A DNA stretch of 64,000 bases from Candidatus Yanofskybacteria bacterium (GTDB lineage Bacteria > Patescibacteriota > Minisyncoccia > 2-02-FULL-40-12 > GWA2-44-9). A model generated the notes under the pieces. The model made no database searches, was not told the DNA's origin, and saw only the letters and a list, made by a program, of their open reading frames with translations. Every line of letters starts with the position of its first letter. The stretch's first letter is position 1. A program made the position numbers and the translations under genes. Shown in pieces: positions 58,061 through 63,796 of the stretch. Location of the stretch: positions 14,420-78,419 of the forward strand of contig JADLBM010000014.1 of assembly GCA_020847715.1 (NCBI GenBank), given 5' to 3'.

Positions 58061-58145
58061 CCGGGCATGAAGGGAGTCAGTTGCTGTACCAAAGCCGAGC
58101 GGACAGCGACGGCGACGTTACGCACTCTGACGAGCGCATGCCCGG
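58061..58145 (+). repeat. copy 2 of the conserved ~60-nt structured element, enclosed by a perfect 9-bp outer stem ccgggcatg/catgcccgg
   Basis: Core identical to 11421..11480 apart from a 2-nt indel and 2 substitutions. The outer stem differs from copy 1 but remains complementary. Confidence 0.6.
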
Positions 58146-58189
58146 CCATCTGCGCACTCGGATCAATACATGCAGATAGTGCAACATAA

Positions 58190-58213
58190 CAAAACGCCCC
58201 TGTCGGGGCGCTG
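58190..58213 (-). terminator. terminator of rplU on the minus strand (gcgcccc-gaca-ggggcg + TTTTGTT)
   Basis: Hairpin plus T-run when read on the minus strand. Confidence 0.55.
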
Positions 58214-58215
58214 TG

Positions 58216-58533
58216 TTATTTTGCGGAGATCTTCGTGATTTTCACTTTCGTGAACGGCTGACGATGACCCTTCTTCTTGTGGTAGCGGGTCTTTGCTTTG
58301 TAGCGGAAGACCATCTTCTTCTCGCCTTTGCCCTCGGCAACCACCGTCGCGGCGACCGTTGCGCCCTCGATGAACGGCTGACCGATGACGGCCTTCTTCT
58401 CGGTCGCGATCAGAAGCACCTCGTCGAAGACGACTTTGTCGCCCTCGTGTTCGAGCTTCTCAATCTCAAGCTCAAGTCCTTCGTGGACGATGTACTGCTT
58501 CCCGCCGGTTTTGATGACAGCAAACGTAGTCAT
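58216..58533 (-). CDS. rplU: 50S ribosomal protein L21
   Basis: MTTFAVIKTGGKQYIVHEG…, canonical L21. Confidence 0.95.
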   Translation of the reverse strand: MTTFAVIKTGGKQYIVHEGLELEIEKLEHEGDKVVFDEVLLIATEKKAVIGQPFIEGATVAATVVAEGKGEKKMVFRYKAKTRYHKKKGHRQPFTKVKITKISAK

Positions 58534-58608
58534 GATGAGATGAAAAATGCCTGAATATCCTAGCAGAAACGCAAAATACTGTCAATTCCCGCCCCATCGG
58601 AGAAGATA

Positions 58609-58640
58609 TTGACCTCCATTGTATATGTGGTATAATGGGT
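58609..58640 (+). promoter_or_regulatory. strong sigma70-like promoter (TTGACC-16-TGgTATAAT, extended -10)
   Basis: Near-consensus -35, a TG-extended -10, ~40 nt before the SD/ATG at 58679. Confidence 0.5.
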
Positions 58641-58678
58641 CATCGCAGTTTGAAAATCAACACAAAACCGGAGGGTTC

Positions 58679-59452
58679 ATGAGGCAGGACTTGGCGCACA
58701 CGTTGAAGGACGTCGCCGGTCGGCGGTACACGCCGCACAAGAGCGGGTGGACCCCTGACCCCGCGCTGCTGGGCGAGGTTGACCTCGAACTCCTCGAGGG
58801 CGTGGACGAGTCCCCCCGTCGCATCCCCATGCGGCCGCGCATGCGCTCCCACGAGGCGCGCCGCAGCGGTTTCCGCTTCGGAGTGCTGCAGCGTGGGCTC
58901 GCCGCCCAGGTGGGCCGCCCGTGGAACGAGGTGTTCAGCGAACTCCTCGAAAAGCTCCCCGGTGACCGCGTCTGGGACATCCGGGAGGCCATCGGTTGGG
59001 CGGTGCAGACCAACTGCCGCCTCGCCAGCGACGGGTCCGTGTGCTGGACGAGGGACGGCCACCAGTGGTGGCCTGTGCGCGGCATGTACGTGCACCCCGA
59101 GACCGGCATCCTCTGCGAGGCCACGCCTCCCGCGAAGCCGGTCCGACTGCCGAAGGTGGTCAACCCGCTCACGGGCACGATGATGGAGGGCGCGTGGGCC
59201 CGCGACAACTACCGTCCCATCGACAAGAGCCGCTTCGCCCAGCGTGAGAACGGCATCTGGTACATCTACCAGGTCGCCGTGCACGCCCCCACGGACACGT
59301 ACGCGACCCGCTGGGACTGGCGGAACGACCGCGAGCAGGTCATCACCTACGGAGAGGTGCCCGCCGTGGACCGGCGGTACATCGCCTCCAAGAAGCAGGC
59401 CTGCCGCCGCCGACTCCGCGTCCTCGGGGTTCGCAACGACCCCGCGGCCTAG
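58679..59452 (+). CDS. hypothetical protein (257 aa, Arg/Trp-rich)
   Basis: SD CCGGAGGG before the ATG. Own promoter and terminator (59461..59495). No recognisable motif. Confidence 0.5.
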   Translation: MRQDLAHTLKDVAGRRYTPHKSGWTPDPALLGEVDLELLEGVDESPRRIPMRPRMRSHEARRSGFRFGVLQRGLAAQVGRPWNEVFSELLEKLPGDRVWDIREAIGWAVQTNCRLASDGSVCWTRDGHQWWPVRGMYVHPETGILCEATPPAKPVRLPKVVNPLTGTMMEGAWARDNYRPIDKSRFAQRENGIWYIYQVAVHAPTDTYATRWDWRNDREQVITYGEVPAVDRRYIASKKQACRRRLRVLGVRNDPAA

Positions 59453-59460
59453 AGCTTCCC

Positions 59461-59495
59461 GCCCCCGCTCCGACACTTGGAGCGGGGGCCTTTCA
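59461..59495 (+). terminator. terminator (gcccccgctcc-gacactt-ggagcgggggc + ctttc)
   Basis: 11-bp perfect stem. Confidence 0.55.
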
Positions 59496-59563
59496 ATTGA
59501 CGCACGCCGCTTAGCTGTGCCAGAATATGCCGCTACGAGAGCTCATTCATAAAGGAGACAGCA

Positions 59564-60520
59564 GTGAACATGGAATATCGCCACGAGCGTCTGGGAGCCA
59601 TTCAGGGCGTCCTCTGGCGAACGATGGCGCTCAACCTGACCGTTGCCGTCCTCAAGACCGTCGGCGGACTGGTAACGGGCATCACGGCTATCTGGGCTGA
59701 CGGCCTACACAGCATTGGCGACTCCCTGAGCAACATCGTCGGCTTGCTCGGCGTTCGCCTCGCGCGGCGCGAGCCAGACGAGGAGTACCCGTACGGATAC
59801 GACAAGTTCGAATCCATCGCGACCCTCGTTATCACGGGCATCATTTTCGTGACACTCTTCGAGGTCATTCGAGCAGGCATTGCGCGTCTGCGTGAGCCCA
59901 GCGATGCAATCGTGAACGGAACAACCATCGCCCTGCTCGTGTCGTCGATGACCATCAACCTCTTCGTGGTCTGGTACGAGGGACGGGCTGGGAAGCGCCT
60001 GAAGTCGGAACTCCTGATTGCGGACTCCAACGAAACAAAATCCGATGTCTTCGTGACGCTGGGCATCCTCTCGGGCGTGAGCACCATGGCGATATTCCCC
60101 GCCCTTGCATGGCTCGACGGTGTTCTGACCCTCTTGGTTGCGTGTGCCATCGGACACGTCATCTACGAAATCGTTACCAGCACCGCACGCGTTCTGGGTG
60201 ACGCGCAAGTCGTAGACCCACGCCGAGTGCACGCCATCGCCACGGCAGTCCCCGGCGTACAGTTTTGCCACGCCATTCGGAGCCGTGGCCGCGAGACGGG
60301 GTTCTACCTCGACCTCCACATCGGCGTTGAGCCGACCATCACCATCGAGGAGGCGCACGACGTTGTGTGCCATAACGTGAAACGCGCCCTCTACGACACG
60401 TTCCCCGAGCTCAAATCGGCGCACATCCACATCGAGCCCAACAATGAGAAGGGACGCACCCGCGAGGGCAGCGTCTTCGCCACTCGTGATCCGTACGGAC
60501 ACAACGGCAACGGCATCTAG
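59564..60520 (+). CDS. cation diffusion facilitator (CDF) family metal efflux transporter
   Basis: Six TM helices with the HSIGDSLSN motif and a cytoplasmic C-terminal domain. Confidence 0.85.
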   Translation: MNMEYRHERLGAIQGVLWRTMALNLTVAVLKTVGGLVTGITAIWADGLHSIGDSLSNIVGLLGVRLARREPDEEYPYGYDKFESIATLVITGIIFVTLFEVIRAGIARLREPSDAIVNGTTIALLVSSMTINLFVVWYEGRAGKRLKSELLIADSNETKSDVFVTLGILSGVSTMAIFPALAWLDGVLTLLVACAIGHVIYEIVTSTARVLGDAQVVDPRRVHAIATAVPGVQFCHAIRSRGRETGFYLDLHIGVEPTITIEEAHDVVCHNVKRALYDTFPELKSAHIHIEPNNEKGRTREGSVFATRDPYGHNGNGI

Positions 60521-60530
60521 CGTTCCCCAC

Positions 60531-60558
60531 AGCGCGCCCATCCAAAAGGATGGGCGCT
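60531..60558 (+). terminator. terminator (gcgcccatcc-aaaa-ggatgggcgc + T5)
   Basis: 10-bp perfect stem plus T-run after the CDF gene. Confidence 0.6.
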
Positions 60559-60564
60559 TTTTGT

Positions 60565-60651
60565 TTGGCGCTCTCGCGTCCCCTTCAAATCCAACAGGGT
60601 CACGATACCAAAACACCGCCCGTGCGGGTGGTGTTTTGGTATTTGTAGCCC
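60565..60651 (+). repeat. left direct repeat (R1) of the islet: TTGGCGCTCTCGCGTcCCCTTCAAATCC, then a 15-bp hairpin, then tATTTGTAGCCC
   Basis: Matches 63128..63227 (R2) in order and sequence: 27/28 identity in block 1, analogous hairpin, identical 11-nt tail shared with the tRNA 3' end. Confidence 0.55.
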
Positions 60652-60867
60652 TGGCGATGCGTTATCAAAACCCCTCATGAAGCTGGTCCAGGATCTCACA
60701 GCACTCGCCCAGAGGAGGCACTATACCCTGTAAAGCCTCCGAAATCAAGCATTAAACCCACTCCCACCCGTTTGTAAAACCTGTCTCCTCTGATAGAAAT
60801 CGCAGGTGTGCTAGCCCTGTCCATACAGGGCTTTCCTTATGGAATGGAAAGAGTACTATGTAGTGGT

Positions 60868-61122
60868 ATGTCCAACCCAGAGACAAACCGCGATGAGCGC
60901 GAAATACTAGCCAGCATCGATGCGAAGCTCACTGCGCTTTTGTCTGTAGCGCTCCGCTGTAATTCCGACGTAGTAGATAGGGTGAGCGTAGCAAGCGCAA
61001 AGAATGTTGGCTTCCTTACCTCTTGTGGGCTTTCCATTGAGGAGGTGGCAGCCGTGCTCGGAACTACCAAAGATAGCGCACGCAAGATACGTGATAACAA
61101 TAAAAAGAATGGCAAAAAGTAA
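60868..61122 (+). CDS. small HTH protein (sigma-70 region-4/LuxR-like), paralog 1
   Basis: C-terminal GLSIEEVAAVLGTTKDSARKIR plus a Lys-rich tail (…NGKK). Start re-set to MSNPETN. Confidence 0.45.
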   Translation: MSNPETNRDEREILASIDAKLTALLSVALRCNSDVVDRVSVASAKNVGFLTSCGLSIEEVAAVLGTTKDSARKIRDNNKKNGKK

Positions 61123-61306
61123 GACCGTGTCCAATCCCGAGACACTGATTGAAAAAACGCTAGAGGAAATAAAGCGCCTGCTTGTGTTGCAGCTTTCCAG
61201 CGCCAATGTCTCCAACGATGACATCGGTGCTGCGTTGGGCGTTTCTTACAAAACCGTTGAACGCATGCTCCCCAAAAAGGGTCGTGCGAAGAAGCGCGAT
61301 TAACCA
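61112..61306 (+). CDS. small HTH protein, paralog 2 (64 aa)
   Basis: NVSNDDIGAALGVSYKTVERML HTH. Its ATG is embedded in the NGKK codons of paralog 1 (ATGGCAAAAAG). Below the ORF-track cutoff in its own frame; read by eye. Confidence 0.4.
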
Positions 61307-61308
61307 TT

Positions 61309-61563
61309 ATGGCAAAGCCCCTAACACTCGAGGACATCGACATGCGCTTGCGCCAGCTGGCATTCCTGCTCGCGCAGCAGACGCTCGTGTCTTCGCTCAA
61401 AGAGGCAAAGCAGCGCGAGAAAATCGCATTTCTTAGCTGTGCAGGCCTTAGTAATGAAGACATAGCCGTGCTGCTTGGCACTACACCTCGCACTGTAACC
61501 GTCGAGTTGTCCGTACTACGGACAGCCGCCAAGAAGCCGAATGGCAAAAAGGCTAAATCCTAA
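61309..61563 (+). CDS. small HTH protein, paralog 3 (84 aa)
   Basis: GLSNEDIAVLLGTTPRTVTVELSVLR HTH plus an …NGKKAKS tail. Similar length and layout to paralog 1. Confidence 0.5.
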   Translation: MAKPLTLEDIDMRLRQLAFLLAQQTLVSSLKEAKQREKIAFLSCAGLSNEDIAVLLGTTPRTVTVELSVLRTAAKKPNGKKAKS

Positions 61564-62266
61564 TATTGTCGAGAAACTTGTAGAGCACACGGGCTACACC
61601 GAGCAAAGCGTGCGTAACGCTATCACCGCAATACGTAAAGAACACGGGTTTACGGCTACCACGCTGAATGGCGCCGCCCATGAATATGCGGGGCGGAAAG
61701 GTACTACCATTTGGCGCATGCTGGACGACGAGGATAGGGCCAGCATACCCAATATCGCCCCTGCAGTGCAGACCGTTGTGGTCAGTAAGAAAAGTGGGAA
61801 AGCTATAACCAATGTCAAGCCTAGCGTCGTTGTACTTACCTATGCAACAACCGACTCTTTTGGCCAGAAGCATGTAGAGGAAGCAAACCGTGCTTATAAC
61901 GCACAGTGCTACACCGCCGCATTCATTTTGTGTCGCAAGATTTTTGAGAATCTCATCATAAACGACCTTTTACTAAAACAGTTCCCTGATAAAAATGCCG
62001 CCAACCGAGCGCTGTACTACAACGAGGCCCAATCTCGTTTCAAGGACTTCTCCGAGATAGTAGATAATCTGTATAAGCAGCGCCTATCCTTTCCGGTGGC
62101 ATGCAGAAAACCTATCGAGCGACTACAAACCAAGCTGGGAGTGTTCATGGGCGGTGCTAATGACTATACGCATTCGTGGTATCACATCTGCGATAAAGCG
62201 GAATTCGATAAGGCTGACGTGCAACAAATAGCCGATCTGATTAGCACAATAGCTGCCGGCATATAA
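61541..62266 (+). CDS. hypothetical protein (241 aa); C-terminal half possibly DUF4145/HEPN-like
   Basis: Its start is nested in the NGKK codons of paralog 3 and its N-terminus resembles paralog 2 (MAK…NPxxxEK). The C-terminal AFILCRKIFENLI…GGANDYTHSW loosely resembles DUF4145. Confidence 0.45.
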   Translation: MAKRLNPNIVEKLVEHTGYTEQSVRNAITAIRKEHGFTATTLNGAAHEYAGRKGTTIWRMLDDEDRASIPNIAPAVQTVVVSKKSGKAITNVKPSVVVLTYATTDSFGQKHVEEANRAYNAQCYTAAFILCRKIFENLIINDLLLKQFPDKNAANRALYYNEAQSRFKDFSEIVDNLYKQRLSFPVACRKPIERLQTKLGVFMGGANDYTHSWYHICDKAEFDKADVQQIADLISTIAAGI

Positions 62267-62429
62267 GTTCAGCGTGAGCCGCACTCAGGGTGCGCTTCAA
62301 GGCACAATGCTGTTTACAATACCCTACTCGTAGGGCATAATTAGGATACAATTCATCGCCTAAACCTGCAGAGACGGCTCGGCGGGCATGGCGCAAAAGG
62401 ACTCCACGCGGCAACCCTAATATACGGAC

Positions 62430-62972
62430 ATGAAAGAAGGTGCGTACAAAGCAGCAATAAGCATCCTGGCGCTAGGCCTAGCCGCCTCAATCTATGTGGG
62501 GATTCAAGCCTCGCGTATTGAAAATCAGATCTCCCTCCCAAGCTTCGGCTATCACGACCTAAGAGAGTATGGATACGATGTTATCTCGGTAAGTGGAACG
62601 CTCGCTGGAGTGGAGGGCGGGAACATTGCCAACAGACTCAACACGAACGAGTTTACCTGCAACCGAGCAACTGGAACATGTCGCCTCGCTCAGGCCGAGA
62701 TAGGCTCTGGAGGCTTTCTATGGGTATATGCTGAGACTTTTGATATAGCATCCTGGGATTCAAACTTTGTTGTATTCAAAACGCAGCCAGGCAGCCTCGC
62801 CTGCGCCGCGTGGACATATCGCATCGACCGCATTAAAAAGGAGCTCATCGGTATCCGCGAGAAAGCAAACGGCTACGATAGCGATCGCTGTGCAGGCGTC
62901 GGACTCGAAAAATTTTCCGTCAAAATCATTGATGGGTTCGACGCCTCTGAGAAGATTCGGAAATCGAAGTAG
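62430..62972 (+). CDS. hypothetical secreted/membrane-anchored protein (180 aa)
   Basis: N-terminal hydrophobic anchor. Four Cys. No recognisable family. Confidence 0.45.
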   Translation: MKEGAYKAAISILALGLAASIYVGIQASRIENQISLPSFGYHDLREYGYDVISVSGTLAGVEGGNIANRLNTNEFTCNRATGTCRLAQAEIGSGGFLWVYAETFDIASWDSNFVVFKTQPGSLACAAWTYRIDRIKKELIGIREKANGYDSDRCAGVGLEKFSVKIIDGFDASEKIRKSK

Positions 62973-62980
62973 CGCCTCAT

Positions 62981-63003
62981 TGCCCCGACGGGGTTCCTGC
63001 AGG
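62981..63003 (-). other. tRNA-derived fragment (CCCCGACGGG+GTTCCTGC = tRNA 3' acceptor and anticodon-stem segments, T-loop deleted)
   Basis: An 11-mer and an 8-mer identical to segments of the tRNA at 63221..63259, in the same orientation, ~220 bp from the tRNA. Confidence 0.4.
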
Positions 63004-63127
63004 CATGAAGCAGTTCATGCCCTCGGATACCCTTCAAATCCATGCGACGGGATTTCTCTTCCTCCGCCACTCTCGGGTCGCTTCACGACAACCTCCGTGG
63101 CTTCCCCAGAGCCCGGGTCTCTCGAAC

Positions 63128-63227
63128 GCCAAGCAGTTGGCGCTCTCGCGTACCCTTCAAATCCCGAGGGGTTCAATATACGAAAAGACATCCACATGTA
63201 TGGATGTCTTTTCGTATTTGTAGCCCC
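63128..63227 (+). repeat. right direct repeat (R2): TTGGCGCTCTCGCGTaCCCTTCAAATCC, a 14-bp hairpin (cgaaaagacatcca/tggatgtcttttcg), then tATTTGTAGCCCC running into the tRNA 3' end
   Basis: See R1. The hairpin also serves as the tRNA's terminator when read on the minus strand. Confidence 0.55.
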
Positions 63228-63295
63228 GACGGGATTTGAACCCGTGTTCCTGCGCTGAGAACGCAATGTCCTAGACCAGGCTAGACGACAGGGCC
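63221..63295 (-). tRNA. tRNA, read as tRNA-Glu (anticodon CUC); 75 nt, no encoded CCA
   Basis: Cloverleaf folded by hand on the minus strand. Acceptor GGCCCUG/CGGGGCU (two G-U). U8, A14. D-stem GUCU/GGAC with an 11-nt D-loop containing GG. Anticodon stem UUGCG/CGCAG, loop UUCUCAG (U33, A37). 4-nt variable loop. T-arm ACGGG-UUCAAAU-CCCGU. Discriminator A. Confidence 0.6.
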
Positions 63296-63349
63296 AAGCG
63301 GTGTATCATTATAACCCGTCTGGACAGGTTTTGCAAATAGGAGGGTTCC

Positions 63350-63796
63350 GTGAAGGTCATCTTCCTGGACATTGATGGCGTGATGAACCGACGAGACACC
63401 GCGCCCCGCACGCGCTCTGCCGGATTCGACCCCGTTCCCATCAGCTGTCTCAACGAGATACTGGCGGCGACCGGTGCGAGCATCGTGGTCACGGGCGCTC
63501 TCGGGCGCGCGATGTACCTCGACGACCTCAAGCTCTTTTTCCAGCATTCCGGCATCTCGGGAGACGCAATCATCGGCGTGACCGAATTCGGAGGCGGAAC
63601 TCGCGGCGAAGACATCACCGCATGGCTCGACGAGCATCCGGACCATCGTGAGTACTACATCGTCATCGATGACGCGGGAATCGAAGATATCAGACCGCAC
63701 GGAAGCCGCTTCATCAAGACCGACTGGAACACGGGACTCACTCCGGCCTGCATCCCGCACGCCGTTCGCCTCCTCAACCGCAAGCGCCACCTCTAA
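63350..63796 (+). CDS. HAD-like hydrolase (polynucleotide 3'-phosphatase/HAD-family)
   Basis: N-terminal VIFLDIDGVMN (DxDGV motif I). GTG start with SD AGGAGGG. Confidence 0.5.
   Translation: MKVIFLDIDGVMNRRDTAPRTRSAGFDPVPISCLNEILAATGASIVVTGALGRAMYLDDLKLFFQHSGISGDAIIGVTEFGGGTRGEDITAWLDEHPDHREYYIVIDDAGIEDIRPHGSRFIKTDWNTGLTPACIPHAVRLLNRKRHL

Follow-up and report, generated by a model that had tools for sequence, protein, structure and literature searches.

A probable integrase-less, tRNA-linked islet with strain-variable cargo in a Candidatus Yanofskybacteria genome

In the tRNA-linked islands of Prochlorococcus, partial tRNAs and degenerate elements accumulate, and earlier elements are pushed inward by later ones (bioRxiv 10.1101/2020.12.28.424599). 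A small islet of comparable organisation lies beside a tRNA-Glu(CTC) gene in the 64-kb stretch of DNA analysed here (hereafter the window), which belongs to a metagenome-assembled genome of Candidatus Yanofskybacteria, in the Candidate Phyla Radiation (CPR, or Patescibacteria). CPR bacteria have tiny genomes and are largely uncultured, and little is known, to our knowledge, of their mobile elements or gene exchange. The islet, at about 60563-63213 of the window, was probably acquired horizontally and is best read as a small, decayed defence islet linked to a tRNA and no longer equipped with an integrase, with att-type scars for boundary repeats and with exchange between strains by way of flanking homology. 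Objects of this kind are known; this one is a new member, to which its host lineage, its palindromic repeats derived from a tRNA end and an uncharacterised cassette encoding helix-turn-helix (HTH) and HEPN-fold proteins lend moderate interest.

Like the islands of the Islander type and those associated with tycheposons in Prochlorococcus, the islet is inserted at the 3' end of an intact tRNA gene, has direct repeats that hold a copy of the tRNA end as well as internal partial tRNA fragments suggesting serial integration, and combines a foreign composition with niche or defence cargo and with strain variability confined to the island. It differs from them in that it has neither a recombinase of the tyrosine or serine type nor an excisionase or a replication module, in its length of 2.65 kb only and in its CPR host. 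The core of its repeats is 13-19 nt long and made of acceptor end and trailer, rather than of the usual ~40-nt 3' half of the tRNA, and conserved palindromes reach ~75 nt beyond that core, on one side only. Another close comparison is with the defence-island hot spots of E. coli, Pseudomonas and Vibrio where, as here, alternative candidate defence modules occupy one site in near-identical strains and are exchanged along with diverged flanks, a signature of homologous recombination. The islet departs from these hot spots in being delimited by hairpin repeats derived from a tRNA end, with a left cargo boundary that coincides with the core to the nucleotide.

An empty site in a relative establishes what has been added. 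The contig L114 (from ENA) carries the nearest relative of the host CDF cation-efflux gene with usable DNA (71% amino acid identity between the CDF proteins). There, the CDF stop codon is followed by a homologous terminator hairpin and then by TATTGGTAGCC and tRNA-Glu(CTC), with TATTGGTAGCCTCGACGGG, the 3' end of the minus-strand tRNA, coming within ~10 nt of the hairpin. Since the tRNA of L114 directly follows the CDF terminator, the extra DNA of the window (~60563-63213 or ~2.65 kb, comprising both repeats, five genes and a remnant zone) is an insertion, which bears out the proposal, made in a first-pass annotation of the window, of integration at a tRNA 3' end. The GC content of 0.50-0.51 at 61-63 kb is the minimum of the window; the drop described in that annotation is real, with a background of ~0.59 (range 0.54-0.65) instead of the ~65% it had given. 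No other empty site came from a scan of genome contigs with the CDF protein, in which the relatives had at most 41% identity and no synteny, and exact look-ups of the window's CDF and HAD proteins and of the protein P0001 gave no record; the contexts of the more distant CDF relatives P0004 and P0007 show no synteny either, and neither the cassette nor ORF5, the membrane-protein gene of the islet, is listed after the CDF gene in the P0003 contigs (gene calls, no DNA).

Native DNA, that is, a vertically inherited AT-rich regulatory operon with chance repeats, would explain why the cassette is common in CPR-type metagenome contigs and has promoter-like and terminator-like signals of its own. We give this explanation hardly any credence: the site is empty in L114, a 98%-identical strain carries other cargo, the cassette recurs in unrelated contexts and phyla with sharp GC steps, and the repeats are far beyond chance.

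The strain with other cargo, L115 (a Logan contig of 5,597 bp), was reached through its 98%-identical homologue of ORF5. It matches window positions 58111-60648 at 98.4% identity (blastn) over the L21 gene, a 277-amino-acid open reading frame (ORF), the CDF gene, its terminator and the left boundary repeat (U-left), as far as ...GGTATTTGTAG. Its alternative cargo (L115 2539-4675) is 2.1 kb long, unrelated to that of the window and likewise low in GC. The 473-amino-acid protein encoded there on the minus strand matches the PADLOC candidate PDC-M36A at 4e-9 and has DUF8370/DUF8371 among precomputed database matches, our own Pfam scan giving nothing. The two strains are homologous again at window positions 62348-63209, from the ORF5 promoter across ORF5 and the remnant zone to the end of the contig, which falls within the right boundary repeat (U-right). 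On the left, the cargo breaks inside the core, where GTATTTGTAG gives way to CCC (window), GGC (L115) or CCCC (at the real tRNA), and U-left is unchanged between the strains despite the different cargo; the right break (62347/62348) is without repeat or core.

The density of single-nucleotide differences between the two strains rises about sevenfold at ~59.9 kb, inside the CDF gene, and is still high beyond the swapped cargo (Table 1). As the flanks of the cargo are diverged above background, the cargo difference must have arrived together with diverged flanking DNA. The raised density marks a recombination tract across the entire hot spot, whose left boundary falls within the CDF gene, and diverged flanks of this sort are the signature of a hot spot replaced as a whole by homologous recombination. 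Three comparable states of one site are at hand: empty (L114), with one candidate defence module (the window) and with another (L115). Given these states and the signature of homologous recombination, this CPR lineage appears to share the dynamics of tRNA-linked islands described in model bacteria and Prochlorococcus. A decayed island and a recombination-prone cassette had both been put forward at first pass, and both fit; L115 has swapped cargo between the same boundaries, with more diverged flanks.

U-left and U-right are co-linear, imperfect direct repeats of ~90 bp, each of which is itself a long imperfect palindrome with a terminator-like hairpin. Block 1 (28 nt, TTGGCGCTCTCGCGTnCCCTTCAAATCC) is identical at 27/28 positions, and the core GTATTTGTAGCCC at 13/13, or at 19/21 when extended in tRNA orientation to include trailer and stem (0/500 shuffles reach this). 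The sequence CCCTTCAAATCC occurs four times in the window at no more than one mismatch (three exact, all at the islet locus), against 0.23 expected. The two hairpins have similar stem bases (ATACnAAAAnAC...GTnTTTTnGTAT, with two compensated transversions) and unrelated tops. Within the U-right palindrome (63156-63240), 63156-63194 is an inverted copy of 63201-63240, which holds the last 21 nt of the tRNA, the trailer and the stem; the arm-to-arm alignment scores 51 against a shuffle maximum of 23 (0/500 shuffles), and the DNA folds at -36.8 kcal/mol (z -10.6). The U-left palindrome is built alike, with compensating changes peculiar to it (CAGGG...CCCTG), and folds at -25.3 kcal/mol (z -4.2).

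The minus-strand tRNA-Glu(CTC) gene occupies 63220-63295, which makes the last 6-7 nt of the right core its 3' end, and each core consists of the last nucleotides of the tRNA plus a 6-nt trailer. About 7-10 nt of the core are tRNA, far below the 3' half usually displaced as a direct repeat. Between ORF5 and U-right, the remnant zone holds a third, partial copy of block 1 (63008-63041, 28/34) and two directly oriented pieces of the 3' part of the tRNA, GCCCCGACGGG at 62982-62992 and CGACGGGATTT at 63045-63055; the likeness of 62982-62995 to the tRNA end is marginal (4/500 shuffles). At window position 62989, L115 has 62 extra bp, which include a perfect 15-nt copy of the tRNA 3' part, GCCCCGACGGGATTT.

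The first-pass annotation had described two ~90-bp segments with a shared three-part layout, had read them as attL and attR, and had recognised the 3' end of the minus-strand tRNA in the last ~7 nt of the right copy. This last point is confirmed, and the two segments do align as co-linear direct repeats far beyond chance, although the right copy starts at 63137 and not at 63128. The att reading stands in so far as the repeats hold a duplicate of the tRNA 3' end; the repeats are no simple attL/attR pair, having a tRNA-end core of 13-19 nt only, with block and palindrome shared on the same side of it. The interpretation was right in its main lines and too simple about the repeats, and is in this sense partly supported. 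A single exchange between attP and attB gives no same-side block unless both arms are already homologous. Plain attL and attR sites leave unexplained that block and palindromic design lie on the same side of the core, and that the block is conserved while the hairpin tops differ. The att arm of an incoming element may have been captured from a related tRNA-Glu trailer, two related elements may have integrated in tandem with most of the first since deleted, or the hairpins may have been selected as bidirectional terminators and kept alike by conversion.

Alternatively, no site-specific integration took place, and a fragile palindromic terminator in the tRNA trailer was duplicated locally, by template switching or break repair, after which foreign DNA came to lie between the two copies through recombination that was either illegitimate or helped by homology, as might happen after DNA uptake with the conserved tRNA as anchor. 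Such an origin would suit repeats that are both long palindromes with arms copying the tRNA end, an islet with an integrase nowhere in it, cassette islets elsewhere that have no att-like repeats, and an exchange between strains that demonstrably went through flanking homology. It would also lead one to expect mutually converting repeats, and position 7 of block 1 is C in both window copies and T in both L115 copies (L115 2455-2482 and 5527-5554), one concerted change per strain; this single-site hint suggests gene conversion between the two repeats. Identity between the repeats is very uneven, however (27/28 and 13/13 against largely different hairpin tops), unlike the neutral decay of a duplication, three unrelated genomes carry the cassette beside the same tRNA species, and the additional, directly oriented fragments of the tRNA end have the look of att scars left in series. 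On balance we hold local duplication to be rather unlikely, though worth serious consideration.

Block 1 was also considered as a relic of the tRNA-Glu anticodon arm, a reading that was dropped: only its TTCAAATCC... part is significant, as the mirror arm of the palindrome, and the test did not align its 5' part. Insertion sequences and miniature inverted-repeat transposable elements have terminal inverted repeats and a short target-site duplication; the boundary repeats of the islet are direct and ~90 bp long, and there is no transposase. Upstream of the cassette, 60763-60785 resembles the tRNA-Glu promoter (63323-63345) in inverted orientation at 19/23 positions, a marginal likeness (6/500 shuffles reach the score). 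The tRNA-Glu gene itself has no encoded CCA in the window (…GGGGCTACAAATAC, 63214-63226), whereas its L114 orthologue does (…GAGGCTACCAATA, 1063-1075), and its acceptor stem has a U6-G67 wobble that L114 does not have; the wobble and the missing CCA are as might follow replacement of the 3' end. An Rfam scan of 58-64 kb found nothing besides this tRNA.

No recombinase was found among the five islet proteins with Pfam, PHROGs, PADLOC or NCBIfam, and an XerD (Xer-type) probe, whose positive control passed, had no match in the window; the absence of integrase and excisionase reported at first pass is upheld by all of these searches. The islet proteins also have none of the integrase, replication (primase/helicase) or packaging-interference domains that mark tycheposons and satellites like phage-inducible chromosomal islands. 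The satellite-type element mobilised in trans that had been suggested at first pass is not supported, no excision or mobilisation as a satellite having come to light.

Integron cassettes and clusters of attC sites lacking an integron integrase (CALINs) resemble the islet in their conserved-end sites with a structured variable stem, in their modular, swappable cargo and in having no adjacent recombinase. The islet differs from them in holding a multi-gene operon with its own promoter, in having only two full sites and in the derivation of these sites from a tRNA end. One could nevertheless imagine an active platform mobilised in trans, in which the palindromic repeats would be structure-specific sites that, when folded, mimic the 3'-end duplex of the tRNA-Glu acceptor and T arm, and a recombinase from elsewhere in the genome or from a helper element would swap modules at GTATTTGTAG, much as at integron attC sites. 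Conserved ends around a variable stem with compensatory changes, a cargo break between strains exactly inside the core, and a self-contained candidate defence module as cargo in both strains would all agree with it. If this were true, CPR bacteria would have an integron-like, tRNA-anchored cassette platform that loads and swaps self-contained defence modules, and the operon of three HTH proteins and a winged-helix/HEPN protein would be one such cargo, a defence system not described before and repeatedly associated with tRNA-Glu(CTC).

Such a platform seems improbable to us. The right end of the swap (62347/62348) has neither repeat nor core, the diverged flanks point to homologous and not site-specific exchange, and the window holds no candidate recombinase. 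Block 1 and GGCGCTCTCGCG were searched for in 114 loci retrieved for comparison without a match to block or core, so that the cassette does not in general come with this repeat. In integron attC sites, an imperfect hairpin is framed by R'' (RYYYAAC) and R' (GTTRRRY). On direct reading of the two repeats, U-left has ATCCAAC without a GTTRRRY partner and U-right has neither, and the attC reading was rejected on this consensus. The cargo does not consist of promoterless single-ORF cassettes either, being a four-gene operon with promoter-like signals next to ORF5 with a promoter-like site of its own.

This operon, HTH1-HTH2-HTH3-ORF4, has overlapping or closely spaced genes, with promoter-like and hairpin signals upstream. 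Its three small HTH proteins are paralogues, each with a leucine-rich helix, an HTH and a basic tail, and have weak CARF-HTH-like matches in PADLOC. Two gene junctions (61098-61119 and 61530-61551) share AATGGCAAAAAG, the basic tail (…NGKK) overlapping the MAK… start of the next protein, which suggests translational coupling and an origin of the cassette genes by tandem duplication. The N-terminus of ORF4 is winged-helix-like (weak matches in a profile search against PDB sequences), and its C-terminal domain has the four-helix up-down arrangement of the HEPN fold. Invariant residues include R132, K133, E136, N137, N207, H211 and S212. In Pfam, ORF4 has weak DUF5677 matches and matches no HEPN family, and it has no match in NCBIfam. 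The first-pass annotation had listed small paralogous HTH proteins and two unknowns; the paralogy stands, and the unknowns are now partly identified, as a winged-helix/HEPN-fold protein (ORF4) and a membrane-anchored protein (ORF5).

HEPN-based abortive-infection and toxin-antitoxin modules (AbiJ-like HTH-HEPN, HEPN-MNT, RnlA/LsoA, HepS) share the four-helix fold of ORF4, in which it is fused to a winged helix of DNA-binding type. Like the ORF4 operon, they are AT-rich, move horizontally, have small partners and often adjoin restriction-modification genes. ORF4 differs from them in its conserved pairs R132/K133...E136/N137 and N207-x3-H211, in place of a canonical Rx4-6H motif. It also differs in its partners: HEPN-MNT modules have an adjacent minimal nucleotidyltransferase, whereas the ORF4 family goes with three or four tandem paralogous HTH proteins (three in the window). 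The operon is compact, widespread, uncharacterised and free of any recombinase, and may reasonably be put forward as a candidate system of defence or of the toxin-antitoxin kind.

Relatives of ORF4 number about 50 in the protein database and at least 120 in JGI metagenomes; none was found in IMG/VR, INPHARED phages or PLSDB plasmids. At loci with enough upstream sequence, 2-4 small co-directional ORFs usually precede the ORF4 relative, and the gene order of the window is repeated in L029, L031 and L032. Where flanks are long enough, the GC content of the cassette is below or about equal to theirs, and clearly lower in many loci; on the 2.7-Mb contig L050, a sharply bounded 1.8-kb islet with a GC content of 0.27 within DNA of 0.55-0.60 contains the cassette alone. 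Among the neighbours (109 proteins at 22 loci), the commonest families are DNA methylases (N6_N4_Mtase), AbiEii-like AAA_21, and restriction enzymes of the Eco57I, MutH and TdeIII (RE_TdeIII) types. Among the cassette loci scanned, for which serine recombinase probes were taken from L116 and L117, only L093 has a recombinase within ~4 kb of the cassette. This large serine recombinase (L093 4148-5791) adjoins a tRNA-Arg(GCG) gene, ~3.5 kb upstream of the cassette.

A tRNA-Glu(CTC) gene is also found beside the cassette in L029 and L103, with unrelated flanks. In L029 (70% ORF4 identity, and 74% nucleotide identity over window 60818-62262), the cassette lies downstream of the tRNA, with the tRNA thus on its upstream side; in L103 (36% ORF4 identity), it lies 330 bp downstream, with a truncated purB in between. 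On our own rough estimate of ~45 tRNA genes per Mb, chance is very unlikely to have placed three cassettes beside one tRNA species. In L103 (568-1744), purB, truncated after ~110 codons, abuts the cassette and is followed by the tRNA, on whose 5' side a XerD-like C-terminal fragment lies at the contig end.

ORF5 is kept in both the window and L115, has a promoter-like site at 62313-62341, and is not part of the HTH/HEPN cassette. Its relatives form 167 representative clusters, IMG/VR yielded no relative, and its structure model (pLDDT 60) is too poor to interpret. The homologue P0327 (52% identity) sits among three large serine recombinases. This setting is seen on contigs L116-L120 (e.g. L116 673-4201 and 10550-11899), where the 52%-identical homologue and the three recombinases are accompanied by many small unknown genes, with no tRNA within 7 kb.

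On the explanation that we favour, a tRNA-linked islet that has lost or never had its own integrase, the 3' end of tRNA-Glu(CTC) would have been the target of one or more integrating elements that left copies of the tRNA end behind. The U-left core and the fragments at 62982 and 63045 would be att-type scars of these past site-specific integrations, earlier elements having been pushed inward by later arrivals. The recombinase genes would have been deleted, or would have acted in trans, never having been carried in cis. The remaining cargo, a candidate HEPN-based cassette and the element-associated membrane protein ORF5, would be under selection, and the islet, no longer self-mobile, would pass between strains as a unit by homologous recombination in conserved flanks. 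The effector could be the HEPN-fold protein, with the HTH proteins regulating it or serving as its antidotes, and the hairpins could double as bidirectional terminators insulating tRNA and cargo.

Several results weigh against this explanation. Neither an excised circle, nor a single-repeat 'excised' allele, nor a recombinase was found. The tRNA-derived core is short, with 13 nt identical, and the 28-nt block lies on the same side of it in both repeats. Block and second hairpin are both missing from the empty site of L114, so that U-left cannot be assigned to host or element. The cassette has no flanking repeats in L050 and three other loci, and around the L029 and L103 cassettes tRNA-derived repeats do not rise above shuffles; in L029, moreover, its orientation relative to tRNA-Glu is opposite to that in the window. 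On the side of function, fold and neighbourhood are the only grounds for proposing a defence module that acts by abortive infection or resembles a toxin-antitoxin system. PADLOC 2.0 has no model matching ORF4, nor one for ORF5, and the canonical HEPN Rx4-6H motif is not present in ORF4, which has A206-N207-x3-H211 without the arginine, the invariant R132 being on another helix; nuclease activity can therefore not be assumed.

Table 1. Positions in the window of islet and flanking features, and divergence between the window and L115
Feature	Position	Strand	Basis or remark
Divergence, window vs L115	58111-59910		10 in 1,800 bp; 0.56%
Host CDF cation-efflux gene, left flank	59564..60520	+	Pfam Cation_efflux 1e-39 and ZT_dimer
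Divergence, window vs L115	59911-60648		30 in 738 bp (4.1 expected at background rate); 4.1%
Intrinsic terminator of CDF gene	60534..60557	+	terminator scan
Left boundary repeat (U-left)	60565..60651	+	block 1 60565-60592; hairpin 60605-60642; core GTATTTGTAGCCC 60639-60651
Strain-variable segment	60649..62347	+	HTH-HEPN cassette in window; 60-aa ORF and 473-aa PDC-M36A-like gene in L115; blastn
Small HTH protein 1, 84 aa	60868..61122	+	ATG at 60868, as in L029 orthologue
Small HTH protein 2, 64 aa	61109..61303	+	HTH_23 8e-6; start overlaps end of HTH1 in AATGGCAAAAAG
Small HTH protein 3, 84 aa	61309..61563	+	Sigma70_r4_2 and HTH matches; paralogue of proteins 1 and 2 by alignment
ORF4, 241 aa, cassette signature gene	61541..62266	+	N-terminal winged helix and C-terminal HEPN-fold domain
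Divergence, window vs L115	62348-62947		15 in 600 bp; 2.5%
ORF5, 180 aa, membrane-anchored	62430..62972	+	N-terminal membrane helix; four invariant cysteines
Remnant zone between ORF5 and U-right	62982..63055	-	tRNA-3'-end fragments, hairpin 62991-63032, third block-1 copy
Divergence, window vs L115	63048-63209		8 in 162 bp; about 5%
Right boundary repeat (U-right)	63137..63226	+	block 1 63137-63164; hairpin 63178-63217; core 63214-63226
tRNA-Glu(CTC), intact, probable integration target	63220/63221-63295	-	ARAGORN; Rfam tRNA 51.9 bits
Promoter-like site of tRNA-Glu(CTC)	63308-63337	-	promoter scan

Outside the islet, the 277-amino-acid ORF just upstream of the CDF gene (58619-59452) has a GC content of 0.68-0.72 against the background of 0.59, and no Pfam or PHROG match; in L115, and next to the P0004 CDF gene, a gene of about that size is found at the corresponding place. 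The gene at 63350-63796, on the tRNA's 5' side, encodes a HAD_SAK_2 domain protein (1e-19; also phrog_1818, 8e-21), and L114 has a different gene in its place.

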